DNA of 64,000 nt from a phage, in sequence record OZ346189.1, one strand, 5' to 3'. Below, piece by piece: positions 41,969 to 60,589 of this stretch; positions within the stretch are counted from its first letter, which is position 1; each line of letters begins with the position of its first letter. The notes under the pieces are model-generated. The model was not told the DNA's origin. It made no database searches and saw only the letters and a program-made list of their open reading frames with translations. The position numbers and the translations under genes were made by a program.

Positions 41969-42006
41969 TTGACAACAGCGATAGGACCTAATACAATGGT
42001 CCTATC
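41969..42006 (+). promoter_or_regulatory. sigma70-like promoter with hairpin overlapping the -10 box
   Basis: ttgaca-N17-tacaat; inverted repeat ataggacc/ggtcctat spans the -10 region. Confidence 0.45.
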
Positions 42007-48510: not shown

Positions 48511-49047
48511 TTTCACCGGGCCAGATATTTTAAAATTCTTAGAAAATCAGAAAATGGATCGAAAACTAAAATGGATTTTTCAAGACAGGCACGATAAGAT
48601 GTGCTGCTCATTCTATCGTTCGCACCGTACTTTAAGTCACTATTCCAGATTTTTCCGCACATACTCTCACCCTTCTACCAGAACTTTCCCAGCTTACCTC
48701 TGACCTTTTATAACAATAAGTCCATTATTATCAGAAAGTTTCGGCACATCTCTTTCGGTACTCGATCTGTTTTTCATTTCAAAGACCTGATTTTCTGAAA
48801 ATTTTTCTCGATAAATTTCTTAGTACTCGATCTGTTTTTCGTTTTCTGAATCGGATTTTCTGGAAATCGTTCCAGCCCTCGACCTGAAATTTTTGGGGAC
48901 GAAATCGATTTTTCGTTTTCAGAAATGGATTTTTAAAATTTCTATATGGGAATATTTTATGGGATACTGTTTTATAGGAAATTGTTACGGAGGGTAATTA
49001 GCATGCTAATTAAATTTATTAAATGCGAGGAGTTCTCATTTAGAATT

Positions 49048-49066
49048 TTGAATGATAATCATTCTC
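49048..49066. promoter_or_regulatory. Fur-box-like palindrome 1
   Basis: ttgAATGATAATCATTcTC: 12-nt core ATGATAATCATT identical to the Fur consensus GATAATGATAATCATTATC core, about 15/19 overall. Confidence 0.35.
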
Positions 49067-49140
49067 GTTTGCAGAATAACGGGCAGGCCCGGTGATTGTC
49101 TCCCGGCCCCTGTTGCCCCGGCTTGTTATTATAGTATCAC
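49049..49140. repeat. direct repeat unit R1
   Basis: aatgataat..ttctcgtttgcag...tgattgtctccc shared with R2. Confidence 0.4.
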
Positions 49141-49178
49141 ACAGGACAAAGAAAGCAAGGATTTTTTGCATAAATTTT

Positions 49179-49280
49179 TAAATGATAATGATAACCGTTC
49201 TCATTTTATGCAGCGCCCATCCCCGGTGGTTGTCTCCCCCGTCACCGGTGCCTGCCGTCCTTTCGATAGGTATATTGTGC
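49179..49280. repeat. direct repeat unit R2
   Basis: aatgataatgataaccgttctcattttatgcag...ggttgtctccc, imperfect copy of R1. Confidence 0.4.
49184..49202. promoter_or_regulatory. Fur-box-like palindrome 2
   Basis: GATAATGATAAcCgTTcTC: about 16/19 to the Fur consensus. Confidence 0.35.
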
Positions 49281-49640
49281 CACCTGGCGGGGCCGCTGTC
49301 AACACTTCTTCAAAAATTTTTTCTAACATAATGCACCAACCGCTGCAACCTGGCGGGGCCAGCCTGGCAGGACCTGACTGACCAGGTAGGAGAGAGTGAA
49401 AACTTGCAAACCTGGTAGGCCTATGCTACAGGGCAGGTAACAATTGAAGAGGAGGTACAAAAATGAAAAGTAATATAATCCCCTGGAAAATGTAGCGATC
49501 AACGCCGCTGAAGTTATCACCCTGGTTGAAAAGGCTATGGCGGGAGCGTTGGAACATAAAGAAGAGTACGAAAAATGATGGTTAACCTGGCAGGGGCGGC
49601 GGCTGGAGAATTCTTCCCAAAAAATAATTCTAACTAATGG

Positions 49641-49668
49641 TTGACAGCTCGGAGAGTTCTGTTATTCT
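49641..49668 (+). promoter_or_regulatory. sigma70-like promoter
   Basis: ttgaca-N16-tattct about 55 nt upstream of 49722. Confidence 0.5.
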
Positions 49669-49721
49669 TATCCTCGCAAGGTGAACAACACCACACTAAT
49701 TAACAGAGAGGATAAAAAATC

Positions 49722-49919
49722 ATGAACGCCTACGGAATTAAAGTACGTCGCAACACTCACCAGGCCGTCACCGATCAAATGGTTTGCCAGGTGGACGTAA
49801 CCATCAACAACGGGCAAGGCCTTTATAAATTCCGTCGCGGTCAGAGCTATACCCGGCAACAGCTTAATCGTTGCGCCCTGACAAAAGGCCAGATCAACCA
49901 CTGGTTTAATAAAAAATAA
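49722..49919 (+). CDS. small basic protein
   Basis: 65 aa, RBS agagaggat. Confidence 0.45.
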   Translation: MNAYGIKVRRNTHQAVTDQMVCQVDVTINNGQGLYKFRRGQSYTRQQLNRCALTKGQINHWFNKK

Positions 49920-49922
49920 GTA

Positions 49923-49951
49923 TTGACATATAGTCTGACACCAAATACACT
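49923..49951 (+). promoter_or_regulatory. sigma70-like promoter
   Basis: ttgaca-N17-tacact. Confidence 0.5.
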
Positions 49952-49983
49952 AAAAGCACAAAAGACACTAAGAGGATAAAATC

Positions 49984-50382
49984 ATGAAAACCACTACCTT
50001 TAATTTTGATAATGCGGACTTTTCTTTTTCTGATGTCAAGAACTGCCGCCGGGATCGTGGATTTTACAAGGCTTATAATCTGGTGGGCCTGGACGATGAC
50101 AATAATTTGCACGAAGTAGCTGAGATCCGGTATTATGCCGCCGCCAGCGGGAACACTCAATACTGCGTTTTTTGGATTCACGACAACAAGAACAATAAGT
50201 ACGGTTATACTGGCGGGAAGGCGAGCGGTCACGGTTACGATAAAGCTAATGCAGCACTTGAGAGCGCATTAAATGCTATGGGGATCACTGCCAACGGCTG
50301 GATCTATGAAGAAGAGTTTTTGTCGGCACTTGCTGACCACCTGGGCTATAAAAAGCACATTGTAACATGCGCCCACGAATAA
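49984..50382 (+). CDS. hypothetical protein
   Basis: 132 aa, RBS taagaggat. Confidence 0.5.
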   Translation: MKTTTFNFDNADFSFSDVKNCRRDRGFYKAYNLVGLDDDNNLHEVAEIRYYAAASGNTQYCVFWIHDNKNNKYGYTGGKASGHGYDKANAALESALNAMGITANGWIYEEEFLSALADHLGYKKHIVTCAHE

Positions 50383-50388
50383 AAATTG

Positions 50389-50445
50389 TTGACACGCTGC
50401 AAAATTCAAGTAAACTAGTCACAAAAGGCGGGAATGTTTCCCGCC
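50389..50445 (+). promoter_or_regulatory. sigma70-like promoter plus 5'-terminal stem-loop
   Basis: ttgaca-N16-taaact, then hairpin ggcgggaatgtttcccgcc (50427..50445) at the predicted transcript 5' end. Confidence 0.5.
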
Positions 50446-50464
50446 AACACAAAGGAAAAAGATC

Positions 50465-50869
50465 ATGAATAAGAACGTACGCCGCATCATGAACGAACTG
50501 GCAAACGATGAAAAAATTATTGACATGCATTTGATCAACATTTGCCGCCGTTGTGTAACATATAACAACCGCGCCGCAAAAGCGCGTGAGATGAACGCAA
50601 AAGGCACCTTAAAGCCATTCCAGGTGGTGGTAAAGGCCATTAAAGATGTAGCTAATACGGCAAACCAGGTACAGGGGAACACCAACGAGAGTACCAATAT
50701 TGATCCGGCTTACATCATGAAACGGATCCGGACCTGCAAGAACAAAGAGCAAGTGTATAATGTCATAGACTGGTTGGATTCTATGGGCGATGTGGTGTAC
50801 AATAGATTCTCGGCAGCTATTGAGATCCAGCTTGACAGGTTAGACGGTAAAGTACTTAAAACTTACTAA
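50465..50869 (+). CDS. hypothetical protein
   Basis: 134 aa, RBS aaaggaaaaag. Confidence 0.5.
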   Translation: MNKNVRRIMNELANDEKIIDMHLINICRRCVTYNNRAAKAREMNAKGTLKPFQVVVKAIKDVANTANQVQGNTNESTNIDPAYIMKRIRTCKNKEQVYNVIDWLDSMGDVVYNRFSAAIEIQLDRLDGKVLKTY

Positions 50870-50918
50870 ATTTATTTTTAGATGGCCTTGACTCCAGGGC
50901 CATCAATAAAGTAAATTA
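50870..50918. repeat. conserved intergenic hairpin element, copy 1
   Basis: atttatttttagatggccttgactccagggccatcaataaagtaaatt; copies at 51491 and 55228. Confidence 0.6.
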
Positions 50919-50949
50919 ATCTCAGCTAAGCGAAAAAGGGGGCTTTAAG

Positions 50950-51069
50950 ATGAGCACTACACGCCAATACACAAAGGTAACTATTATCGCCTGCGTTGTC
51001 GGTTACATCCTGGCGCAAATGTTAATGAGTAGCGCTAACAGTTTTGCAAAATTTTTCTTAAATTTTTAA
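50950..51069 (+). CDS. small hydrophobic peptide (39 aa)
   Basis: below track cut-off; RBS aaaaggggg; TIIACVVGYILAQMLM hydrophobic core. Confidence 0.35.
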   Translation: MSTTRQYTKVTIIACVVGYILAQMLMSSANSFAKFFLNF

Positions 51070-51097
51070 TTGACAAGCTAACTTAGATTGATATACT
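51070..51097 (+). promoter_or_regulatory. sigma70-like promoter
   Basis: ttgaca-N16-tatact, then weak hairpin cgggaaaacttccc. Confidence 0.5.
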
Positions 51098-51148
51098 TAA
51101 ACACGTAAACGGGAAAACTTCCCAGAACACACAAAAGGAGAAAACACC

Positions 51149-51490
51149 ATGACTACTATGACCGCCGCAGAAAAAGCTATTCAGATCGCCGCACTGAAAA
51201 AACAGATCGCAGACCTTGAGAACAAGATCGATAACTTTGAAATCGACGAGGACAAGTACGACGAAAACTATGATGAATGGTTAGACGAGATCTACGGCGA
51301 AATTATGATCGGAAACATTTCTTTTCTTCCGTCGCGTATCCTCAAGGAGCTAGATCCTATCACTTACCGCTGCGGATTTAGCGACTACATCGACAGCCTG
51401 GATATTGAGGACGATGAAGAATACCAGGAATTACAGACAGAGTTAGAAGAAGCAAAAGAAGAGCTTGCAGAACTGGAAGAAAACGAGTAA
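51149..51490 (+). CDS. acidic coiled-coil protein
   Basis: 113 aa, very acidic (DEDKYDENYDEW, EDDEEYQELQTELEEAKEELAELEE). Confidence 0.5.
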   Translation: MTTMTAAEKAIQIAALKKQIADLENKIDNFEIDEDKYDENYDEWLDEIYGEIMIGNISFLPSRILKELDPITYRCGFSDYIDSLDIEDDEEYQELQTELEEAKEELAELEENE

Positions 51491-51537
51491 GATTATTTTT
51501 AGATGGCCTTGACTCCAGGGCCATCAATAAAGTAAAC
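51491..51537. repeat. conserved intergenic hairpin element, copy 2
   Basis: gattatttttagatggccttgactccagggccatcaataaagtaaac. Confidence 0.6.
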
Positions 51538-51579
51538 TTTATACTGTTAACACTGAACTAATGCATAGGAGTTAAAACC

Positions 51580-51825
51580 ATGGCAGCACTAATCACCAAA
51601 TATTATGCCCCTACCAACACCAAAAGCGCCCGTATCATGGTAAAAGGCTTCGGACGTAAAAAGGTGTACACCTGGGATTATGCCTTAGACACGGAAGACA
51701 ACTACACCAACGCGATGACCGATTTTATTAATGATCTGAACACGCGGATCTTGACAAATTATAAAATTACCGATATTGCCTATATAGGGGAAGGCGGGAT
51801 CTGTTTTGTCGGTATCGTCAAATAA
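51580..51825 (+). CDS. hypothetical protein
   Basis: 81 aa, RBS taggagtta. Confidence 0.45.
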   Translation: MAALITKYYAPTNTKSARIMVKGFGRKKVYTWDYALDTEDNYTNAMTDFINDLNTRILTNYKITDIAYIGEGGICFVGIVK

Positions 51826-51837
51826 GCTGTTTTTTCG

Positions 51838-51875
51838 GTGGTCCTGGTAGCAGGGCCATCTATAAAGATAGTTTA
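51838..51875. repeat. degenerate copy of the intergenic hairpin element
   Basis: ggtggtcctggtagcagggccatctataaagatagttt shares the 3' half cagggccatc.ataaag. Confidence 0.4.
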
Positions 51876-51899
51876 TCAATACAATGAAAGGAGAAAGTA

Positions 51900-52254
51900 C
51901 ATGATCAGCGGGGCAAGTTTTATTATTGGCGCTATTGCTACGGCTTTAATTGTAAACAAGATCCAATCTAAAAACGAAAAAGATAGCAACGCCCTTACAG
52001 AATACCCGTTTTGGGTATTCAACGACAATGAAGACTATATTATCAAGTACAAGAATGAGAAGGGCGACCAGGTAACACCGCGACCGATCCCGGCTTACAA
52101 GATGCAAGAAACACTATACCGCCTAAAGGCTGGAGGCGCAAAAATCGTAGACTTTTGGGGATACGATCACACAGATCAGGAAGTTATAAAGCGCCGTATC
52201 CGGGCTATTCAGGCCAATATTGAAGTTAGCAAGGGGGGAATATATGAAGATTAA
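51900..52254 (+). CDS. membrane-anchored protein
   Basis: ATG 51900 behind RBS gaaaggagaaag; N-terminal hydrophobic helix ASFIIGAIATALIV. Confidence 0.45.
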
Positions 52255-52441
52255 TTTTGAGAAGATTGTAAAGCGATCTCATGCTTCCGAAGAGCTGCCG
52301 GAACGCCGCCAGCGCAACAATAAACTGAATAAGCCAAAAAGATTTGGGAAGATCTGGCGGAATCATTATGATCGCAAATTACCGGGCCTGCTTTTGGAAC
52401 GTGAACGACAGGCGGAACGATACCGCCACAAAGGCAAATAA
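52244..52441 (+). CDS. small basic protein
   Basis: ATG 52244 behind RBS aagggggga; Arg/Lys-rich. Confidence 0.4.
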   Translation: MKINFEKIVKRSHASEELPERRQRNNKLNKPKRFGKIWRNHYDRKLPGLLLERERQAERYRHKGK

Positions 52442-52622
52442 CAACCAACGCCCCGCCATTGTGCGGGGCTTTTTATTTCTATCCTACGAATAGCGCCCCC
52501 GGTTGGCCCTGTAAGCGCCAAAAAGGCCCCACCTATGCAATCGCCCCCCTTTAACCTGAAAACATCGCTTAGGGCCGTTTTATGGCGTTAAAAATATCAT
52601 TGATAGTGATTTTATTTAAAGC

Positions 52623-52654
52623 TTGACATCTTAAACAGGTTAGCTATACTAACC
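52623..52654 (+). promoter_or_regulatory. sigma70-like promoter with inverted repeat across the -10 box
   Basis: ttgaca-N17-tatact; ggttag/ctaacc flank the -10. Confidence 0.5.
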
Positions 52655-52682
52655 ACATCAAAGAGAGAAAGGAGTAAACGCC

Positions 52683-52943
52683 ATGCGTAAATTAAAAAAT
52701 TTTGATAAAGTTGATGTTGTCCTGAATAATTTTTACTACTGCAACAACAAGGCCATTTGGTGGCGTGATAGTTCCACCGATAAAGTCAAGGCGCGCTTTC
52801 TCCAGGGGCACTGGCAAGGCCGTCCAGTGATTAAAATCATGGGGCAATTGGTAGCGTTTAAAAATTGCCGCCGTGTTGATGACGTTGAGGAGATTTTAAA
52901 CATTTTGCGCCACAATAATTTAAAAAATAGTGTTGACAAGTAA
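52683..52943 (+). CDS. hypothetical protein
   Basis: 86 aa, RBS aaaggagtaaacgcc. Confidence 0.45.
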   Translation: MRKLKNFDKVDVVLNNFYYCNNKAIWWRDSSTDKVKARFLQGHWQGRPVIKIMGQLVAFKNCRRVDDVEEILNILRHNNLKNSVDK

Positions 52944-52989
52944 ATCTCAATAAGTATAATTAAACACACAGGCGGGAAAACTTCCCGCC
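52933..52989 (+). promoter_or_regulatory. sigma70-like promoter plus 5'-terminal stem-loop
   Basis: ttgaca-N16-tataat, then hairpin ggcgggaaaacttcccgcc (52971..52989). Confidence 0.55.
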
Positions 52990-53017
52990 ACTAACAAAGA
53001 AAACAGGAGAAAATATC

Positions 53018-53641
53018 ATGACCACCGTTAACATTACCACAGGTTACAATTTAGCTTTCGACGTGCTGACCGACGAACAAAAAGAAAAAGCCGTTGAAAT
53101 GGTCCGCGAAAGAGAAGAACACAGCGGGGATAACTTTTTTGCAGAAAGTGTAATTGAAGACTATAAAGAATATATCTTTCCAGAGTATGGCCTTGAAGAT
53201 ACCGAAGTACATTGGTCCGGCTTTTGGTGCCAGGGCGACGGCGCATCAATCAGTGCGGAAAACGTGGATTTAGAAAAATTCTTGCGTAAAGTCAAGTCTC
53301 TGACTAAATTCCGCTCAATTCGTCACTTGTTCGGCACAATGCACGATGGCGAGCTATCCGCAAGTGTTGAGCGCGATCCATATAGCCGTTATAGTCACGA
53401 AAACACTGTAAGCGGGTACATCGATACTACATGGCTAGACCTGACCGCCAAACAAGAAAACAAAGTGGAAGACCTGGAAGAACTGATCACCGAGACGGTA
53501 CGGGAGCTATCCCGCAAGGTTTACGTAGACCTGGAGGAGGCCTATCTAGAACAGTTCACCGCAGAAAACCTGATCGGCCTTATCGAGGCCAATGATTGGC
53601 GGTTTGATGTCGATGAATATGGTGAGATGACTTTTTCATAA
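53018..53641 (+). CDS. hypothetical protein
   Basis: 207 aa, RBS acaggagaaaat. Confidence 0.5.
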   Translation: MTTVNITTGYNLAFDVLTDEQKEKAVEMVREREEHSGDNFFAESVIEDYKEYIFPEYGLEDTEVHWSGFWCQGDGASISAENVDLEKFLRKVKSLTKFRSIRHLFGTMHDGELSASVERDPYSRYSHENTVSGYIDTTWLDLTAKQENKVEDLEELITETVRELSRKVYVDLEEAYLEQFTAENLIGLIEANDWRFDVDEYGEMTFS

Positions 53642-53649
53642 ATAAAGTG

Positions 53650-53707
53650 TTGCAATAGCCTAAAAACCTGCTATATTAAAACTCAAGGGGGCAAGACGTT
53701 TGCCCCC
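53650..53707 (+). promoter_or_regulatory. sigma70-like promoter plus 5'-terminal stem-loop
   Basis: ttgcaa-N17-tatatt, then hairpin gggggcaagacgtttgccccc (53687..53707). Confidence 0.5.
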
Positions 53708-53731
53708 ACACAAAACAAAGAGGAAAACATC

Positions 53732-54112
53732 ATGAAAAACACTACTAAAGCTATTGACACTGTTATGTTTAACCTGGTTACATTCCGTGAAGATATGAAA
53801 GATCTTCCACGTGAAACAGTGTGCGATCACATTGAAAACTATCGCAAACTAATCAAAGAGTTGCCTTTAAAACGTGACCAGTATGCGGCTAACGCTATGC
53901 TTAACGCCATGATCAAAAAGATGATTCAGTGTGATTTAACTCTGGCCTATGATTATGCAGGTGGTCGTTTTGCAGTATACAATCAGCCCGTGCCTGGTAT
54001 GAGCACCACCGAAGAATTGCACGCGTTAAATCTGAAACAAGATGTATGGGATAACATGCCCCGCGTGGTGGTGTGGGCAGAAAGCGGAAAGATTTACGGC
54101 GATAATTTTTAA
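53732..54112 (+). CDS. hypothetical protein
   Basis: 126 aa, RBS aagaggaaaac. Confidence 0.5.
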   Translation: MKNTTKAIDTVMFNLVTFREDMKDLPRETVCDHIENYRKLIKELPLKRDQYAANAMLNAMIKKMIQCDLTLAYDYAGGRFAVYNQPVPGMSTTEELHALNLKQDVWDNMPRVVVWAESGKIYGDNF

Positions 54113-54176
54113 TCAGGTAACAGGCGGCATATTTGCCGCCTTATTGTTAAACAGAACTGCAAAAGAGGTACATAGA

Positions 54177-54548
54177 ATGGAATTTATTATTTTGGCTGTA
54201 GTAGTTGCCTTGTTCAACGCCTGGATCGCTGGCAAGATAGGTAGATCCGCTTTTCTATGGTTTGTTATATCTATTTTCCTGGGAGTGGTTGCAACTATTG
54301 TATTGGTTATCCTTGCAATTGTTGACAAGGGCGATAATAGAAAGGGTAAAGTGTTTTCCGACCTGTATGACGCACAAACGTTTGTCAACGCCTATTATAG
54401 TGATCTTCCAGTCTCCCTACGCTGCAGCCTGGCACAACAGGTTTTTGATGAGGCTAAAACCAGAGACCAAGCCCATGAGATATGTTTAACTGAAGCGGAT
54501 CGCCTATTTGAGAGGAATAGAAAATATGTGGACCAGCCGTTTAAATAA
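54177..54548 (+). CDS. two-helix membrane protein
   Basis: ATG 54177 behind RBS aagaggtaca; IILAVVVALFNAWIAG and FLWFVISIFLGVVATIVLVILAIV hydrophobic segments. Confidence 0.45.
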   Translation: MEFIILAVVVALFNAWIAGKIGRSAFLWFVISIFLGVVATIVLVILAIVDKGDNRKGKVFSDLYDAQTFVNAYYSDLPVSLRCSLAQQVFDEAKTRDQAHEICLTEADRLFERNRKYVDQPFK

Positions 54549-54747
54549 CGCCACGTTAATTAATCCCTTTAGTGAAGATTTGAAGCCAGCCGCCTGGCGT
54601 GACGGATTCAATAACGAACGCTTTATTTTCAGGCCTGATCTTGAGGAATTTTATAACAATGGATCGAACAACAGCGGAGATAATTTTTCTTGTGGTGTGC
54701 GTGGTGATAGGACTCCTGGGGGCCATTGTAAACCACGTCACTACTAA
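54526..54747 (+). CDS. hypothetical protein (alternative: 41-aa membrane peptide at 54659..54784 in another frame)
   Basis: ATG 54526 behind RBS gagagga; the overlapping frame encodes a hydrophobic peptide, so assignment is uncertain. Confidence 0.3.
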   Translation: MWTSRLNNATLINPFSEDLKPAAWRDGFNNERFIFRPDLEEFYNNGSNNSGDNFSCGVRGDRTPGGHCKPRHY

Positions 54748-55026
54748 CAGGAGGGAAGGGGGAGACGATGACAACCAAGGATAAGCCATGCGCTGATAAG
54801 GTGCGCCGTGTTATGGTATGGCTTGAGATTATCGCCCTTGAAATATTGTTAGGCGTAGGGATGTACTTTATCGCTGTAAGTAACTAAGAGCGGCCCCCGA
54901 TCATGGGGGCCTATCTTTTTAAAAAATTTTTCTTCCGGGGTGTTGCAATCCGGTCCGGAATGTGGATAATAACAATCAACGGGGAGCTAATCCCCACCAC
55001 CACAAAAACCAGAAAGGAGAAACAAA

Positions 55027-55227
55027 ATGAGCAACAATATCCGCGTTATTAACTTCAAAAAAGAAGAAAAAATTGCCGTGCTGATTGACGGTCAAGAAAT
55101 CTTCAAGGGCGACTATGAAGATCATCAAACGGCGATTAGTATCACTCGCGTGATTGGTTATCATAATTTCTACCCCCAAGGCGCTGAGGCAGCAGTTAAA
55201 CGAATCAAAGAGATTGTAGGCCTGTAA
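55027..55227 (+). CDS. hypothetical protein
   Basis: 66 aa, RBS aaaggagaaac. Confidence 0.45.
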   Translation: MSNNIRVINFKKEEKIAVLIDGQEIFKGDYEDHQTAISITRVIGYHNFYPQGAEAAVKRIKEIVGL

Positions 55228-55277
55228 AATTTATTTTTAGATGGCCTTGACTTCAGGGCCATCGATAAAGTAAATTT
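55228..55277. repeat. conserved intergenic hairpin element, copy 3
   Basis: aatttatttttagatggccttgacttcagggccatcgataaagtaaattt. Confidence 0.6.
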
Positions 55278-55320
55278 AAACCCTGTTAAAATACCACGCA
55301 GTTAACAAGGAGTGATAGAC

Positions 55321-55620
55321 ATGTTTATCCAGGCTAATAATCTTTATTTCTTTGATGGTCAGATCGTAGATGGTGTGGAAGTGGAGATCACCGGGTGCCC
55401 TGGCGGTCAGGCTATGACTTTTCGGAATAATGCCTTTGATGATTCTCATATCGTTATGAGAATGGAAGTTACGAAGCTGGACGACAAGAAAACACTTATT
55501 GACTATTCTGTGAAAGATCATCCAGACTACCGCATGATCCATGGTGATTTGTGCATTGTTGACCGTGACAAGGTGGGCGGCATTGTGATCGCTATTGTGA
55601 ACGATGTTTTCTCAAACTAA
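55321..55620 (+). CDS. hypothetical protein
   Basis: ATG 55321 behind RBS aaggagtga. Confidence 0.45.
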   Translation: MFIQANNLYFFDGQIVDGVEVEITGCPGGQAMTFRNNAFDDSHIVMRMEVTKLDDKKTLIDYSVKDHPDYRMIHGDLCIVDRDKVGGIVIAIVNDVFSN

Positions 55621-55637
55621 TTTCAGCAGGCGATTTT

Positions 55638-55988
55638 ATGAAAGTCAAACTATATTACCTTAATGAGCTTAACCCCCTTGCCCAGGTCCGCGCCCTAGCT
55701 AATACCTTGATTTGTGAGAAATCTGTATATTGTGTTGAGCTTAACGCCATGCGTGAACGTCTCAAAGGTGGTTACTTTGACATCCATGCTGCAATCAACG
55801 GCCTGAATATGGAATTTATACGCTTACGTAACAGCCGCCGGAATCTGGCAAGAATGGAACAAGATCCGGCCCACCTTCGTAAGCTGGTTATTGAAAATCA
55901 TCTGATGTTTAATGCCGAGGGTGATTATTACCATTTTCACCGCAAACGCTGGTACCGTGGCGGCAATACAGGCAAGAATGCAAAATAA
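55638..55988 (+). CDS. hypothetical basic protein
   Basis: 116-aa ORF. Confidence 0.45.
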   Translation: MKVKLYYLNELNPLAQVRALANTLICEKSVYCVELNAMRERLKGGYFDIHAAINGLNMEFIRLRNSRRNLARMEQDPAHLRKLVIENHLMFNAEGDYYHFHRKRWYRGGNTGKNAK

Positions 55989-56019
55989 GGCCCCTAGCAG
56001 GGCCTGCAGCAATATAATC

Positions 56020-56055
56020 ACATAAAGGCCATGCGGTTGCATGGCCTTTATTATT
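56020..56055 (+). terminator. rho-independent terminator
   Basis: aaaggccatgcggttgcatggcctttattatttt. Confidence 0.6.
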
Positions 56056-56190
56056 TTGGCGTTACAACGGCATACGGGGCGCTTAAAAAATTTTTAAAGA
56101 AGTACTTGCATCATTCCCGACAATATGGATAATAAGAGTTGTCGAGGGGGAGGCCCCCAATCGTTGACCAGATAGATAGGAGTTAAAATC

Positions 56191-56475
56191 ATGGCTATTG
56201 TTACCGCTGGCGATGTAGTAGAAATGGAAGCAAAATACTTAAAAGCGGGTATGCACATCCTACGGAATGATCAAGAGTTATTATTAACGATGGTTGACTA
56301 TAATCACGGCCAGGATTATCCAAGCATCGACTACTTTTTTGAGTATGTTGATGAAGAGTTGAAAGAGGATGAGGCCTATTGCGGTGAGTTCTGCAACTTC
56401 TTTTGTCCTGATGAGGTTGTAAAGGTTATTTATCAACCTGGCGTAGCTTTCCCGCTGCACGCTATCAATAAATAA
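56191..56475 (+). CDS. hypothetical acidic protein
   Basis: 94 aa, RBS taggagtta; preceded by hairpin gggggaggccccc. Confidence 0.45.
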   Translation: MAIVTAGDVVEMEAKYLKAGMHILRNDQELLLTMVDYNHGQDYPSIDYFFEYVDEELKEDEAYCGEFCNFFCPDEVVKVIYQPGVAFPLHAINK

Positions 56476-56530
56476 ACCTGGCGGGGCCGAAAAGGCCCCC
56501 AATTATGAAAATAAAGAGAGGCAAATCATC

Positions 56531-56764
56531 ATGATGGAACAAATTAAACGCGCCGAGGCTATTAATGGCAACGTGATCTATTTTGTCAGCAAAAACGAAA
56601 AAGGCGTACCATATGCGGCAGTAATAGTACAACCTGACGGCGATTATTGGTTTACTGTGTACGGCGCTTATTCTTTTGGGCGTCCAGTGCATGATAAAAT
56701 TTTGAAAGTAGCGAACCCTACCGGGAAGAATATCACAGCAGAAAAATTTTTTGAAAATAGTTGA
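56531..56764 (+). CDS. hypothetical protein
   Basis: 77-aa ORF, RBS agagaggcaaatc. Confidence 0.45.
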   Translation: MMEQIKRAEAINGNVIYFVSKNEKGVPYAAVIVQPDGDYWFTVYGAYSFGRPVHDKILKVANPTGKNITAEKFFENS

Positions 56765-56789
56765 CATGACCATATAAGACTGTAATATA
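56761..56789 (+). promoter_or_regulatory. sigma70-like promoter
   Basis: ttgaca-N17-taatat, then weak hairpin gggggcaactaacccc. Confidence 0.5.
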
Positions 56790-56839
56790 TAAATCAAAGG
56801 GGGCAACTAACCCCACCAACTACAAAGAGGATAAAAATC

Positions 56840-57019
56840 ATGGCTATTATTGCAAAGACTGAGATCGTAGGCTTAGATTCTATTCTCCTCGCATATGAGG
56901 AAGCTATAGAAATGTATGTGGTTTCCTATGGTGAGTATATCCGTGAATATAAATCTATTGATCTGGCTTTTGAATGTTATATCCGCCAGGTTAATAAAGC
57001 GTACGATGATTATCGTTAA
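56840..57019 (+). CDS. small protein (59 aa)
   Basis: below track cut-off; RBS aagaggataaaaatc. Confidence 0.4.
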   Translation: MAIIAKTEIVGLDSILLAYEEAIEMYVVSYGEYIREYKSIDLAFECYIRQVNKAYDDYR

Positions 57020-57025
57020 AATAGT

Positions 57026-57082
57026 TTGACAACAGCCATCTTACAAAGCATAATACATAAGGCGGTGGAATGGTCCGCCACC
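57026..57082 (+). promoter_or_regulatory. sigma70-like promoter plus 5'-terminal stem-loop
   Basis: ttgaca-N17-cataat, then hairpin ggcggtggaatggtccgccacc (57061..57082). Confidence 0.5.
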
Positions 57083-57106
57083 TGGAACAAAGAAGAGGTA
57101 AACACC

Positions 57107-57352
57107 ATGAAAAGCAATAAAGGTTATAACGGTTACAAAAACAAAACTCATTGGAATGTAAGCCTTTGGATTAATAACGATGAGTCATTGTACCGGTTGG
57201 CCCAAGGCTTTATTAACGCCAATGCTAATCGTAATGATGCGGCGCGGGATATGATGCTTTTTCTGGAGCTAACCGGACAAGATAAGACCCCGGACGGCTT
57301 CAAGTACAGCACTACGGCGATCCGTGCCGCGATGGTTGGAATGAAACACTAA
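57107..57352 (+). CDS. hypothetical protein
   Basis: ATG 57107 behind RBS gaagaggtaaac (track ORF starts at 57026, upstream of the promoter). Confidence 0.45.
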   Translation: MKSNKGYNGYKNKTHWNVSLWINNDESLYRLAQGFINANANRNDAARDMMLFLELTGQDKTPDGFKYSTTAIRAAMVGMKH

Positions 57353-57429
57353 AAGCACATAGCTGCCTTACCCTGGGGCTGTGGTAGCGGCCCCATGAAT
57401 AAGGTTACTAACAGAAGAGAATAAACACC

Positions 57430-57534
57430 ATGAAACAGAAATTAATCGATGCAGTGATCTTGGTTATTGCCCTGGGTATTGGCCTGATTGCAACCATGTC
57501 TAATATGATCTTGTCTTCCAACGGTATCGGGTGA
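57430..57534 (+). CDS. small hydrophobic peptide (34 aa)
   Basis: below track cut-off; AVILVIALGIGLIATM single helix. Confidence 0.3.
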   Translation: MKQKLIDAVILVIALGIGLIATMSNMILSSNGIG

Positions 57535-57543
57535 GGTTGGCAA

Positions 57544-57759
57544 ATGATCACTAACAAAACAGGCAAAACGGAATTTTTACGCAACTTACAGATCGGCAAG
57601 CCTGAGATCTGGTACTGCACTAAAACACCACGTGACGAAATGAAAGACTTCACCGCCACGCTGCAACGGGTAAAGATATCTATCACGCAGAAAAAGGCCT
57701 TACTAGTGGTGGAAGGGGAGATCCCCCAAACCGTTGTTATAGTTGAGCGTACAGCATAG
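57544..57759 (+). CDS. hypothetical protein
   Basis: 71-aa ORF. Confidence 0.4.
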   Translation: MITNKTGKTEFLRNLQIGKPEIWYCTKTPRDEMKDFTATLQRVKISITQKKALLVVEGEIPQTVVIVERTA

Positions 57760-57850
57760 TTTAATTTATACAGATACCTGAAAATTAACCAACAAAGCAT
57801 AAACAGGCGGTTACCGCCGCCTTAAACGTAGCAGAAAGAGGATAGACACA

Positions 57851-58135
57851 ATGAAAAAGATGATCGCAGTGGTTACCCTGGTTGTTGGACTTAATGCGCC
57901 TGTAATGGCTAAAGAGCTGGCAAAAGAGGTTAATCTAACGGATATTCATGCCGTCAATCAAATCGGGGTTACTTATCGCTTATGCCTTGCCGCTAAAACT
58001 TTTAAGGACGGCACAACAGAGTACTACGGATTCGAGGGTATCCGGTGCGGTGAGCTTGCTCGCGACCTTAAGGAAGATCCAGACCTGGAGGATCTGCCCA
58101 TAACCGTGAACGGAAAAACTTACGTGAACCGTTAA
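57851..58135 (+). CDS. small secreted/periplasmic protein
   Basis: 94 aa with signal-peptide-like N-terminus MKKMIAVVTLVVGLNAPVMA; RBS agaaagaggatag. Confidence 0.45.
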   Translation: MKKMIAVVTLVVGLNAPVMAKELAKEVNLTDIHAVNQIGVTYRLCLAAKTFKDGTTEYYGFEGIRCGELARDLKEDPDLEDLPITVNGKTYVNR

Positions 58136-58138
58136 CCA

Positions 58139-58273
58139 TGAGAAAGATAATTATTACCATGGGGATCGTGGCGGCAATGTTGGCGATCTTTCCCTTTATG
58201 GTTAGGTATGTGCTGATTAATGTTGTCCTGGTAGTCAGCGATCTGGTGTTATATATTAACTCATTGTTTTAGG
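58139..58273 (+). CDS. small hydrophobic peptide (44 aa)
   Basis: below track cut-off; two hydrophobic stretches. Confidence 0.3.
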
Positions 58274-58469
58274 CGCGATAATGACAGCGGAAGAAGTTAA
58301 AAAAAGTACTGGCGGTACTGCGTTATCATAATCATTGCAAGGTGAAGAATGATCCTGATTATCTTGATTCATCCCTTGAAGAGGATACACTACAAGCCAT
58401 AAGCAACATGCAAGAATTGCTTAAGCGTATGACAGAGAAAAACCGACCGGACTACATAGGGGGTAAAAT

Positions 58470-58781
58470 ATGATCGCTATTACGCCAACCGTTTTAGATT
58501 GGTATCGGCAACGCATAGCGCCTCCGCTGGCTATCTTCAAAGATGCGGAAGCAAAACAACGCCGGATCTCAATACATGAGATCATCAACCTTAACGCTGG
58601 AGGCACACCATACCGCCCAGGACCTGGCCGTGAGATGGACAATACATTGGCGATCCTGAAGATACGCCGTAAACGGTCCTCCCTTACGCTGGATTCATTA
58701 CACACAATGCAGTCCCCGTTCCAGGTGACTGGGAAACGGATCGCCAGGTCCTGGACAAAGGCCAATGACCGGACCGTATAA
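58470..58781 (+). CDS. hypothetical protein
   Basis: 103-aa ORF, RBS gggggtaaaat. Confidence 0.45.
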   Translation: MIAITPTVLDWYRQRIAPPLAIFKDAEAKQRRISIHEIINLNAGGTPYRPGPGREMDNTLAILKIRRKRSSLTLDSLHTMQSPFQVTGKRIARSWTKANDRTV

Positions 58782-58999
58782 ATAAAAAGTGTTTTGGTAC
58801 TGATTTTGGGGTTGACTTGTTCGGCCCCTTTTGCTATTCTTATTAAACGGGCGGCACTTGGGAACAGGGGGAGACAATCACCAGGCCTGCCTGTCATATA
58901 AGAACTATAAAAACCGTTGACATCTGCCAGGGGGTGGGGTAACATTTATCTTGAAGGGGCAAAGGTGCCCACACAACAACCAGAAGAGAGGAAAACACT

Positions 59000-59272
59000 A
59001 TGTCAAGCTGGATTAATCAAGAAGTCGAATCACGTTTTAATGCTATTTGGGATCTCATCGAAAAAGAAGACGGCACATCAAGCCCCTACCTCAACAATTT
59101 GGAATTCCATTTTGTGGAAGCGATGAACGCAGAACATGATCACGAAGGTGGTGCGGACGAGTTCGCTAAAGGGTATGGCTTCAACAATGCCAACGAAATG
59201 ATCGAGGCGGTTGTACTCCAGGCTGAGGAAGATTATCAATTAAAAACGCTTGAATTCTGCCGCCGTAAGTAA
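59000..59272 (+). CDS. hypothetical acidic protein
   Basis: 90 aa, RBS agagaggaaaac, promoter-like ttgaca at 58917. Confidence 0.45.
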   Translation: MSSWINQEVESRFNAIWDLIEKEDGTSSPYLNNLEFHFVEAMNAEHDHEGGADEFAKGYGFNNANEMIEAVVLQAEEDYQLKTLEFCRRK

Positions 59273-59332
59273 TAAGATAATGACACGGGCCGGGAGGCCC
59301 ACTAATCAGAACCACACAAAGAGGTAAACATC

Positions 59333-59596
59333 ATGAAACGTCTTGATCAGCTTAAACTAGTTCAGTACATGGCCTACAAAGTTCTTGAAGTCCAAAAAGG
59401 TAGCAAAAAAGAGGTTTGCGAGAAAGCATATAAGATCTTTACCCGTAAAAAAGATGATTGGATGTTACGCCAGACCAAAAAAGCCGATATCCTGGGATAC
59501 CTGGAAGAAGAGATCCGACTTGAAGAACAAGAAGAGATCCGCCGTAGTGAGGCAGATTATCAGGCAGCTTGGGAAAACTGGATGAGCAACAAATAA
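59333..59596 (+). CDS. hypothetical protein
   Basis: 87 aa, RBS aagaggtaaac. Confidence 0.45.
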   Translation: MKRLDQLKLVQYMAYKVLEVQKGSKKEVCEKAYKIFTRKKDDWMLRQTKKADILGYLEEEIRLEEQEEIRRSEADYQAAWENWMSNK

Positions 59597-59662
59597 TACA
59601 ACAAGTTACATGGTCAGGGGCAATAAAGCCCCTTGATCACATAAAAATTATGCTATCCCTGG

Positions 59663-59691
59663 TTGACAGGGATCGGCAGTTTTGCTATATT
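59663..59691 (+). promoter_or_regulatory. sigma70-like promoter
   Basis: ttgaca-N17-tatatt with inverted repeat ccctg/caggg around the -35. Confidence 0.5.
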
Positions 59692-59740
59692 CTTTTTTGA
59701 AGGGAAGTTGTAAGAAAATTAACTAAGAGGTAAAAACACC

Positions 59741-60160
59741 ATGAACATTAAATCTAATAATCCGGCATATAGCTTTGATAACGCTTTTTGTCACGGTCCG
59801 GCGGCGAAAGGATTCGAAATCGATGGTAAACTAATTATTGTCAATGTTGACGGGGAAGAGGTTGCAGTATATCCGGTGGCAGACGTAAAAAGCCGTTTAC
59901 AATGCCGCATGGATGTTACCGCCTATCAGCTTGATCCGGTCCGCATAGTTGCCCTGGTCCTGGAAGAAGAAATTAAAGCCATGCACCATAGCAACAGATT
60001 TATTGGTGACGCGCAGGATAATATGAAAGTATGCCGCCATAAAGTTAATGAAGTGCTTAAAGAGTACGGCTATAAAGATCTTATGATCAAACGTGAGGAA
60101 AAATTCCGCTACCGTAACGACCTGGCAAATCGGATTTTTGAAATATACGAATCATTATAA
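59741..60160 (+). CDS. hypothetical protein
   Basis: 139 aa, RBS aagaggtaaaaac. Confidence 0.5.
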   Translation: MNIKSNNPAYSFDNAFCHGPAAKGFEIDGKLIIVNVDGEEVAVYPVADVKSRLQCRMDVTAYQLDPVRIVALVLEEEIKAMHHSNRFIGDAQDNMKVCRHKVNEVLKEYGYKDLMIKREEKFRYRNDLANRIFEIYESL

Positions 60161-60180
60161 TTTTTTAACTGAATTATCAA

Positions 60181-60204
60181 GGGGCTTAGGCCCCTTTCTT
60201 TTTG
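60181..60204 (+). terminator. rho-independent terminator closing the rightward small-gene array
   Basis: ggggcttaggcccc followed by tttctttttg. Confidence 0.6.
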
Positions 60205-60589
60205 TCTGCTCTTCCTCCTACCACAAACGGCCCAGCCTGGCAAGTGGAATAATTGACTAGCCATCAATCCCACACACTGTACAAATATACATGGAAAATA
60301 ACTATTGCATAATTTTTCATTGTGTGGTAGCAGGTCCATTTTTACCCGTTTTCTCTCTCAAAATTGCACGTAATGCCGCTATTGCACAAAATTTAACCTG
60401 ATGCACATCTTCAATATCTTGTCAACAACTAAAAATCTTTATAAGTCATACACTTACACACTCACAAAAGCGTGTTCTACGTGAAAAATCGAGTATAACT
60501 ATAGCCGCCAGATCTCAGAATTTACAAAGGCCATCATTAAAGCTTCAGTAAAATCAGTCATTCCTCACCTCTTGTTAGTCACTATACTA

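Follow-up and report, generated by a model that had tools for sequence, protein, structure and literature searches.

The closest described counterpart of the element considered here is the promoter-early stem-loop (PeSL), known from the T4-like phages RB49 and phi1, and also from PST/T4 and nt-1/KVP40 (Arbiol et al. 2010, PMC2839356; Comeau et al. 2014, PMC4122927). We examined an array of small genes at positions 49641–60160 of a 64,000-nucleotide stretch of phage DNA from sequence record OZ346189.1 (the window, to which all coordinates refer), in which short cassettes of promoter, hairpin and leader recur between the genes. As published, a PeSL combines a strong sigma-70 promoter, AT-rich upstream sequence, a stem-loop of the form GN-loop-CN and, on the 3′ side, a Shine-Dalgarno site with an ATG. 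The stem-loop may lie upstream of the −35 box, over the −35 box, in the spacer, over the −10 box, or downstream of it. PeSLs occur in hyperplastic regions beside ORFans, with the stop codon of the upstream gene at the 5′ end, and recombination between them, sometimes in the loop, yields indels and encapsidated mini-circles (PMC2839356, PMC4122927). An RB49 PeSL stem-loop, which has no obvious U-tract, cut expression to the same degree as rrnB T1 when placed between a promoter and lacZ (PMC2839356). In the literature searched, PeSLs were reported for T4-like phages only. Judged from its sequence, the array studied here is built of PeSL-type cassettes, a known kind of element in a phage group for which it had no earlier description: the promoter, the stem-loop, the flanks, the hyperplastic ORFan setting and the breakpoints of a PeSL were all found.

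A second body of work concerns structure at the 5′ end of mRNA. Both RppH and RNase E need single-stranded 5′ ends, and 5′ secondary structure stabilises Escherichia coli mRNA (PMC3997798). The leaders of ompA and papA act as 5′-terminal stem-loop stabilisers, as PMC3997798 cites the work of Emory, Bouvet and Belasco (1992). In T4, the decay of early mRNA depends to a major extent on RNase E (PMC3014915).

Promoter-hairpin cassettes in the small-gene array

By similarity, the source phage is an rV5-like myovirus (Vequintavirus). Along its whole extent the array shares 97.6% identity with Escherichia phage AlexBoehm, while rV5, Murica and many other Vequintavirus genomes are 94–97% identical to it. 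Almost all of the genes concerned are annotated as hypothetical proteins; for AlexBoehm, the annotation of the matching stretch lists 30 hypothetical proteins and a putative holin. Counting open reading frames (ORFs) together with Shine-Dalgarno sites gave about 30 genes, rather than the 25 or so proposed in an earlier note on this DNA, all on the + strand and 31–207 codons long. GC skew and ORF layout indicate one long + strand unit, which ends at a convergent junction near 60.2 kb. All of the array proteins tested in a PHROG scan (20/20) fell into families of unknown function, and gene content varies between Vequintavirus genomes that are 88–97% identical.

Thirteen sigma-70 promoters with scores of 9–12 of 12 were identified by a consensus scan and a scan of our own, all on the + strand and all intergenic. 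Seven of these have TTGACA and a score of at least 10 of 12. The 20 nt 5′ of the −35 box contain 11–19 A/T. Promoters lie 60–90 nt upstream of a start codon with a Shine-Dalgarno site, and the cassettes occupy stop-to-ATG spacers of 60–90 nt. The proportion of genes with a promoter of their own is about half (the 13 canonical promoters and three weak ones inside a repeated element), lower than the 'most genes' of the earlier note.

Nine of the 13 promoters are followed by a hairpin 6–12 nt past the −10 box, and then by an A/C-rich leader, a Shine-Dalgarno site and an ATG. Between the −10 box and the start of pairing lie, in the nine cassettes in order, 10, 12, 10, 9, 10, 12, 10, 6 and 10 nt. 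The nine leader hairpins have folding energies of −5.5 to −14.4 kcal/mol and are separated from the ATG by 19–32 nt; the leaders downstream of them are predicted to be unstructured. The array, the nine hairpin cassettes and the four remaining promoters are listed below, each promoter being named by P and a window position.

49641–60160, + strand: small-gene array, a hyperplastic 'ORFan' region of ORFs whose starts have a Shine-Dalgarno site, with compact intergenic cassettes.
50389–50464, + strand: P50389, TTGACA-16-TAAACT, 10-nt gap, hairpin 50427–50445 GGCGGGAAtgtTTCCCGCC (−13.1 kcal/mol, folding z-score −4.3), leader aacacaaaggaaaaagatc, ATG 50465.
51070–51148, + strand: P51070, TTGACA-16-TATACT, 12-nt gap, degenerate hairpin 51110–51124 CGGGAAaacTTCCCA (GGGAA/TTCCC); P192 of rV5.
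52933–53017, + strand: P52933, perfect TTGACA-16-TATAAT, 10-nt gap, hairpin 52971–52989 GGCGGGAAaacTTCCCGCC (−13.1 kcal/mol, z-score −5.7), ATG 53018.
53650–53731, + strand: P53650, TTGCAA-16-TATATT, 9-nt gap, hairpin 53687–53707 GGGGGCAAgacgtTTGCCCCC (−14.4 kcal/mol, z-score −4.0), ATG 53732.
54943–55026, + strand: P54943, TTGCAA-16-GATAAT, 10-nt gap, hairpin 54981–54995 GGGGAgctaaTCCCC, ATG 55027.
56106–56190, + strand: P56106, TTGCAT-16-GATAAT, 12-nt gap, hairpin 56146–56158 GGGGGaggCCCCC, ATG 56191.
56761–56839, + strand: P56761, TTGACA-16-TAATAT, 10-nt gap, hairpin 56799–56814, ATG 56840.
57026–57106, + strand: P57026, TTGACA-17-CATAAT, 6-nt gap, imperfect hairpin 57061–57082 GGCGGTGGaatgGTCCGCCACC (−11.3 kcal/mol), ATG 57107.
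58917–58999, + strand: P58917, TTGACA-17-TAACAT, 10-nt gap, hairpin 58956–58970 GGGGCAaaggTGCCC, ATG 59000; P168 of rV5.
49641–49668, + strand: P49641, TTGACA-16-TATTCT, without a GC hairpin; P195B of rV5.
49923–49951, + strand: P49923, TTGACA-17-TACACT, without a hairpin, leader unstructured; P195A of rV5.
52623–52654, + strand: P52623, TTGACA-16-TATACT, inverted repeat GGTTAGctataCTAACC at 52638–52654 around the −10 box; P186 of rV5.
59655–59691, + strand: P59663, TTGACA-17-TATATT, 7-bp inverted repeat ATCCCTGgttgaCAGGGAT at 59655–59673 around the −35 box.

The rV5 record marks six promoters in this region, corresponding to P49641, P49923, P51070, P52623, P58917 and P59663, and leaves P50389, P52933, P53650, P54943, P56106, P56761 and P57026 unmarked. 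For the whole rV5 genome, 33 sigma-70 promoters and 20 terminators were predicted in a paper that makes no mention of leader hairpins (PMC3606486).

Much of what the earlier note had said of these structures was borne out. The four hairpins that it had placed after promoters, at 50427, 52971, 53687 and 57061, are all present, and five more were found. Its description of them as perfect fits those at 50427–50445, 52971–52989 and 53687–53707, while the one at 57061–57082 is imperfect. The shared leader (..ACACAAAGGAGAAAACACCATG) corresponds to the repeat families D2, D3 and D8. The hairpin sequence said to occur twice is held intact by P52933 and P50389 (GGCGGGAA), and P51070 has a degenerate copy; outside the hairpin and the promoter boxes, P50389 and P52933 show little similarity. 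Inverted repeats over promoter boxes are likewise present, at 41981–42006 (−10), 52638–52654 (−10) and 59655–59673 (−35). That of P52623 is not kept in MiataMamis or in contig L003.

The layout recurs far above chance expectation. With a strict definition of the hairpin (at least four consecutive pairs, at least four of them G-C, starting 6–12 nt past the −10 box), 8/13 promoters were positive, against a chance of ~6% per promoter estimated from 19 intergenic hairpins per 2346 nt (binomial p ~1e-7, calculated by hand). In controls with looser criteria, a hairpin accompanied 14/181 promoter-like hits on the opposite strand, taken over all loci, and 1/16 promoters in positions 1–48999 of the window. 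Single-hairpin folding z-scores were strong for three hairpins (−4.0 to −5.7); the others lay between −0.5 and −2.5, with −2.7 for the hairpin at 57375–57395. Thus, the signal resides in repeated position and polarity, and not in individual hairpins. The G-rich arm comes first in 12/12 leader hairpins. Four intergenic hairpins are C-first, of which three are terminator-like and the fourth is the −35 repeat at 59655. Chance as the origin of the layout is ruled out by these position and polarity statistics. The universal G-first polarity needs no functional reason, and common ancestry of the cassettes is its best reading, since polarity is the same on both strands and a change from G-C to C-G has no wobble intermediate.

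Stem conservation and recombination at the cassettes

The homologous region was compared cassette by cassette in 17 Vequintavirus genomes or contigs, 88–97% identical. The −10 box, linker and leader are near-invariant and the hairpin is the most variable part, yet nearly every variant folds. P53650 has 15 distinct orthologous variants, whose stems are always 7–9 bp and whose flanks are almost constant (examples are GGGGGCAA..TTGCCCCC, GGCGGGCGA..TTGCCCGCC and GGGGGCGAG..CTTGCCCCC). Compensatory change is seen in MiataMamis both at P50389 (GGCGGTTGAtacTCAGCCGCC) and at P56106 (GGAGGTgatGCCTCC), where G-C is replaced by A-T and GGGGG/CCCCC becomes GGAGGT/GCCTCC. Orthologues of P54943 (GGGGAGacaCTCCCC) have an altered loop and a retained stem, and at P56761 most relatives have a better hairpin (GGGGCaacaaGCCCC). 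At P59663 the repeat reads CCTTG/CAAGG in rV5 and Murica in place of CCCTG/CAGGG, and I29 and V18 have the G·T intermediate. Some loops are swapped for their exact reverse complement while the stem stays the same, namely 50435–50437 (tgt to aca, in L003), 52979–52981 (aac to gtt, in JohannBauhin) and 53695–53699 (gacgt to acgtc), the loci with such flips being L003, L015 and L013. This indicates that the identity and strand of the loop are free. Reverse-complement loops typically point to template switching, or to an inversion, at a palindrome. Genomes also differ in how long the G-runs and C-runs are, and V18 (L012) has ~17 G at the P56106 hairpin, which could stem from true slippage or from an assembly artefact.

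The MAFFT alignment of P53650 orthologues is not structure-aware (G-run and C-run indels), and pair counts were made on an ungapped pool of 36 distinct hairpins with three-base loops from four phage lineages. In this pool, of which the inner five pairs were pre-selected to pair and the outer three were not, 92.7% of cells were paired, compared with 73.5% in shuffles and 38–59% with a slid partner. The outer three pairs were paired in 75–86% of sequences, and both-side changes occurred at 7/8 pairs. Stems kept by compensatory change, together with drifting loops, argue for selection on structure and not for a loop-specific protein site. This comparison shows that the stems are preserved by selection while stem sequence and loops drift. 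A comparison of sense with antisense leader stability (76 vs 44 in favour of sense, p = 0.004) was discarded as evidence, since the antisense fold is biased by its A/C-rich flanks and orthologues do not count as independent data.

BLAST breakpoints against relatives fall in the −35 box of P56761, in the −35 box, hairpin and leader of P57026, and in two further hairpins, 57805 and 58808. YN3 has lost 57107–57759, and with it three genes, through a fusion of GGCGGT, the 5′ arm at P57026, to the 57805 hairpin. In I29 and JohannBauhin, 57121–57413 has been lost between two copies of the leader sequence 'aaacaccATGAAA'. P51070 and P52933 are paralogous cassettes (71% identity over 66 nt, repeat family D5), and V18 and ECML-10 carry a chimeric P52933 bearing the 5′ arm of P51070. 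YP-6 and ECML-10 are without the gene 53018–53641, which lies between the P52933 and P53650 cassettes. In L003, the best match to the P56106 query at that place is a copy of D1, a second type of cassette described below, and not a P56106-type hairpin. These rearrangements, read from genome comparison, show the cassettes to be points of gene gain, loss and swap between related phages.

The same arrangement extends to other groups of phages. The genes 53732–54112 and 56840–57019 have counterparts of 70–83% identity in phi92-like and phAPEC8-like phages (Stephanstirmvirinae) and in jumbo PBECO4-like phages (Asteriusvirus). At one locus per group, TTGACA-16/17-TAnnnT is followed 8–14 nt later by a G-first hairpin, a purine-rich leader and an ATG. 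This layout was found at 15/17 promoters in Phapecoctavirus (L016), 8/17 in Justusliebigvirus (L017) and 6/13 in Asteriusvirus (L018), and 74/75 hairpins across all loci are G-first. A search for the hairpin motif in related phages, as the earlier note had advised, identified the core CGGGAA-N3-5-TTCCCG in cassettes of Vequintavirus, Phapecoctavirus, Justusliebigvirus and Asteriusvirus. A 40-nt query of the phi92-type hairpin found 3–7 copies per Stephanstirmvirinae genome, and weaker matches in Vequintavirinae of Cronobacter, Klebsiella, Enterobacter and Pectobacterium. BLAST with the whole 96-nt cassette gave no match in other phage groups. A protein-seeded search of IMG/VR provided two close loci, and pattern scans provided five stretches each from IMG/VR and from metagenomes. 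In Cronobacter phage CR9 (L035), the hairpin lies mostly within the −35/−10 spacer, as in RB49.

Some records of related phages bear on the exchange of these genes and on the identity of their carriers. In rV5 (NC_011041, locus L025), ORF 167, within the array, and ORFs 205 and 206, just upstream, are annotated as similar to RB49 hypothetical proteins, which fits exchange of ORFans between cassette-carrying phages. About 22 GenBank records titled 'Campylobacter phage' (MG0656xx, host Campylobacter jejuni) match the array region (49641–60160, 52600–57120). The full-length ones among the matches listed are 93–95% identical, and A150 is a partial match at 82%. These records are probably mislabelled or co-isolated rV5-like coliphages.

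Two spacers of the array were also noted. At 58782–58999, a non-coding spacer of 218 nt contains tandem promoters, TTGACT-17-TATTCT and then P58917. The −35 box of the first is within a terminator-like hairpin (58808–58828), and a leader or small RNA of ~75 nt is predicted; breakpoints between related genomes recur at position 58829. At 52470–52620, ~150 nt without an ORF, fairly G+C-rich, separate the terminator at 52450–52469 from P52623. MiataMamis and contig L003 have ~540 bp extra at this position, where five small genes are annotated in MiataMamis.

Proposed role of the leader hairpins and its alternatives

The reading that we favour, with our confidence evenly balanced, is that the array is PeSL-type and probably early, and that each hairpin would serve as an RNA-level 5′ boundary element of its cistron. 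With a start site 7±1 nt past the −10 box, the hairpin would begin between about +1 and +6 and form the first structure in the leader, and primary transcripts would start 0–5 nt before it. Read-through RNA cut in the AU-rich promoter stretch would also gain a hairpin-capped 5′ end. In either case, the 5′ hairpin would be expected to hinder RppH and 5′-end-dependent attack by RNase E, and to keep upstream sequence from pairing with the ribosome-binding site. At the DNA level, the repeated cassette sequence would supply homology for modular gene shuffling. By analogy with the known 5′ stabilisers, an mRNA-stabilising role of the leader hairpins is plausible. The capping of cleaved read-through RNA would also account for four G-first hairpins that have no recognisable promoter and lie 25–32 nt before the next start:

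56483–56499, + strand: G-first hairpin GGGGCCgaaaaGGCCCC, 31 nt before ATG 56531; conserved in 17 loci with loop and stem variants.
57375–57395, + strand: G-first hairpin, 25 nt before the start at 57421.
57805–57822, + strand: G-first hairpin AGGCGGttacCGCCGCCT, 28 nt before ATG 57851; recombination partner of the P57026 hairpin.
59287–59300, + strand: G-first hairpin GGGCCgggaGGCCC, 5 nt past a GATAAT without a usable −35 box, 32 nt before ATG 59333.

Several points weigh against a boundary role. For Vequintavirus and its relatives, a literature search turned up neither start-site maps nor transcriptomes. Most hairpins leave 3–5 unpaired 5′ nt, which is marginal for blocking RppH or RNase E, and the hairpins at 56483, 57375, 57805 and 59287 are comparable while having no promoter. 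In CR9 and RB49, a hairpin embedded in the spacer cannot affect the transcripts of its own promoter, and a role that requires a 5′-terminal position cannot be general for the cassette family. The constant spacing could in part derive from common descent of the cassettes rather than from selection. A comparison of RNA- with DNA-level selection, which counted 23 G·T against 15 A·C quasi-pairs in the stems (about 13 vs 7 in true leader hairpins), did not set the two apart. The attenuation of lacZ by the RB49 stem-loop (PMC2839356) favours an attenuator role.

The T-tailed terminators of the array, to which the leader hairpins may be compared, are four:

52450–52469, + strand: canonical intrinsic terminator, C-first stem followed by TTTTTATTT.
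54892–54911, + strand: T-rich run after a C-first stem.
56022–56051, + strand: T-rich run after a stem without G-first or C-first bias.
60179–60196, + strand: T-rich run after a G-first stem; bidirectional.

In the original interpretation of PeSLs, the hairpin is an attenuator or terminator that damps read-through from upstream cassettes, and its position after its own promoter is incidental. With only four T-tailed terminators across ~30 genes, read-through must be frequent, and this explanation also draws on the RB49 stem-loop that lowered lacZ as much as rrnB T1 (PMC2839356), on the hairpins in promoter-less spacers and on the differing position of hairpin relative to promoter between lineages. 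However, a sequence check of all nine leader hairpins found no U-tract directly after any of them (0–1 T in the following 8 nt for 8/9, and 3 for P56106), which suggests that they are not canonical terminators. A terminator scan of the + strand flagged none of them, and efficient termination would abort the transcripts of the hairpin's own promoter, 10 nt upstream; we consider an attenuator rather unlikely here. It is also conceivable, if unlikely, that the hairpins matter at the DNA level only, as palindromic hot spots of recombination or template switching that have spread with mobile cassettes and mini-circles and have no RNA role. Breakpoints in hairpins and leaders would follow, as would the chimeric hairpins with a crossover in the loop (V18 and ECML-10 at P52933, and the YN3 fusion of P57026 with 57805), the exchange of loops for their exact reverse complement that marks template switching, the variation of G-run and C-run length by slippage, and the presence of the same genes and cassette type in unrelated coliphage groups; template switching could itself restore symmetry. 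Recombination, however, needs homology and not pairing, and leaves unexplained the compensatory changes in both arms (P50389 in MiataMamis, P56106 and P59663) as well as the four of 13 promoters that function without a leader hairpin.

The remaining explanations invoke a specific signal or the opposite strand. The shared hairpin was suggested in the earlier note as a site for an RNA-binding regulator of phage or host; a variant of this idea would be a dimeric repressor on an operator at +3 to +22 that shuts early promoters. The core CGGGAA-N3-5-TTCCCG common to four phage groups, the place just past the start site, suited to an operator blocking RNA polymerase, and the variable central bases, which fit an operator of two half-sites, are in keeping with such a site. 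Within one genome, however, the stems differ (GGCGGGAA, GGGGGCAA, GGGGA, GGGGG, GGCGGTGG, GGGCA) and the loops are 3–8 nt long, so that no single protein could read all of them. Orthologous stems shift by compensatory substitution, the loop is unconserved and can flip strand, and a permissive Rfam scan of 49000–60500 matched no family, giving only a sub-threshold chance match to Clostridium-PBP (33.5 bits against a gathering threshold of 94.4). Conservation of stems across lineages is to be expected in any case, as paired positions are slow and G-C to C-G lacks a wobble intermediate. The suggestion thus finds no support from these variants, and we regard it as very unlikely. The longer core GCGGGAA-N3-5-TTCCCGC, which recurs at a fixed position behind consensus promoters in no fewer than four otherwise unrelated groups of large enterobacterial myoviruses (rV5-, phi92-, phAPEC8- and PBECO4-like), might be a specific signal, for instance one that marks early transcripts as 'self' against mRNA decay or shut-off induced by the phage or exerted by the host, or that allows early promoters to be switched off by a shared factor. 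This is decidedly unlikely; if true, a conserved cis-regulatory code would be travelling horizontally along with the genes under its control. Finally, the hairpins could be antisense terminators that halt antisense transcripts coming in from the convergent unit past 60.2 kb, and a scan of the − strand does flag 50445–50427, 52989–52971, 53707–53687 and 56814–56800. The T-rich tail on that strand is the A-rich linker between −10 box and hairpin read in the opposite sense, and this linker is more simply an AT-rich discriminator and start-site region. A usable − strand T-tract is found at only about half of the hairpins, a bidirectional terminator already stands at 60179–60196, and there are no high-scoring − strand promoters within the array, which makes an antisense function highly improbable.

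The array contains a further structured repeat, D1, which forms the second type of cassette:

50868–50917, 51489–51538, 51824–51873 and 55227–55276, + strand: D1, 50-nt structured repeat with TTGACT at the apex.

D1 folds as one long hairpin (−20 to −24.5 kcal/mol) with a 10-bp upper stem (GATGGCCTTG/CAGGGCCATC), and its T-rich 5′ flank pairs with its A-rich 3′ flank. In most of the related genomes fetched D1 occurs three or four times. Its copies fall into two subtypes, and covariation is seen where the lower stem ends (AAATTT..AAATT vs AAGTTT..AAACT). Copies stored in reverse orientation fold ~6 kcal/mol worse, a hint of sense-strand RNA structure. The annotation of Murica labels D1 a terminator; this was rejected, the repeat being T-rich upstream and A-rich downstream on both strands. 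From its modelled helix of ~20 bp, D1 could be a candidate RNase III site.

The PeSL is a proposed device by which T4-like phages shuffle accessory genes that bring along the signals for their expression. Its presence in rV5-like phages, and apparently also in phi92-, phAPEC8- and PBECO4-like ones, would make it general in large enterobacterial myoviruses, and shared cassettes would give ORFans a route between unrelated phage families. For annotation, the cassettes flag the seven promoters that are unmarked in rV5. As expression parts, comprising a strong promoter, a 5′ hairpin and a leader, they are compact and naturally varied, and the natural series of hairpin variants is suited to the study of 5′ structure and phage early mRNA stability.

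Comparison with known systems

The leader hairpins resemble the ompA and papA leaders, and synthetic 5′ hairpin stabilisers, in having a stable hairpin at or close to the point where the transcript is predicted to begin, with an unstructured leader and then a strong ribosome-binding site after it; any effect would likewise come from structure rather than sequence. They differ in that the 5′ ends are predicted here, most hairpins leave 3–5 unpaired nt, and the cassettes are repeated and recombining. With intrinsic terminators they share a short, GC-rich, intergenic hairpin, but not the U-tract. Structures between cistrons are also known as stabilisers, as in the repetitive extragenic palindromic (REP) elements of E. 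coli operons and the RNase III-processed hairpins between the early genes of phage T7. The resemblance to these lies in structure between the cistrons of read-through transcripts, which could define processed ends. The leader hairpins have no sequence similarity to REP elements, and with stems of 5–9 bp they are too short to be RNase III sites. Hairpin promoters of the N4 type were ruled out, as the promoters are ordinary sigma-70 promoters.

The PeSL remains the closest match, and the differences from it concern the host phage, the position of the hairpin and the kind of evidence. The phage is here a Vequintavirus and not T4-like, and the layout also occurs in Stephanstirmvirinae and Asteriusvirus. 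In this array the prevailing class has its stem-loop 3′ of the −10 box, whereas the RB49 segment has mostly hairpins in the −35/−10 spacer and a single one beyond the −10 box. Promoter-less hairpins also occur in this array. Terminator activity and mini-circles were shown by experiment for RB49 and phi1, while the cassettes of the present array were read from sequence. PeSLs and the present cassettes both have a near-consensus sigma-70 promoter, an AT-rich stretch before the −35 box, a stem-loop of G-run, loop and C-run, and a CA-rich leader with a Shine-Dalgarno site and an ATG, in dense arrays between small ORFans. In both, breakpoints fall within the cassettes, and some crossovers lie in the loop. 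The arrangement downstream of the −10 box is one of the published PeSL classes, and the classes that overlap the −35 or −10 box are represented by P59663, the repeat at 41981, D1 and the repeat at 52638–52654. The RB49 region, when read directly, has hairpins of the form GGGGATC..GATCCCC and CA-rich leaders like those of the present array.

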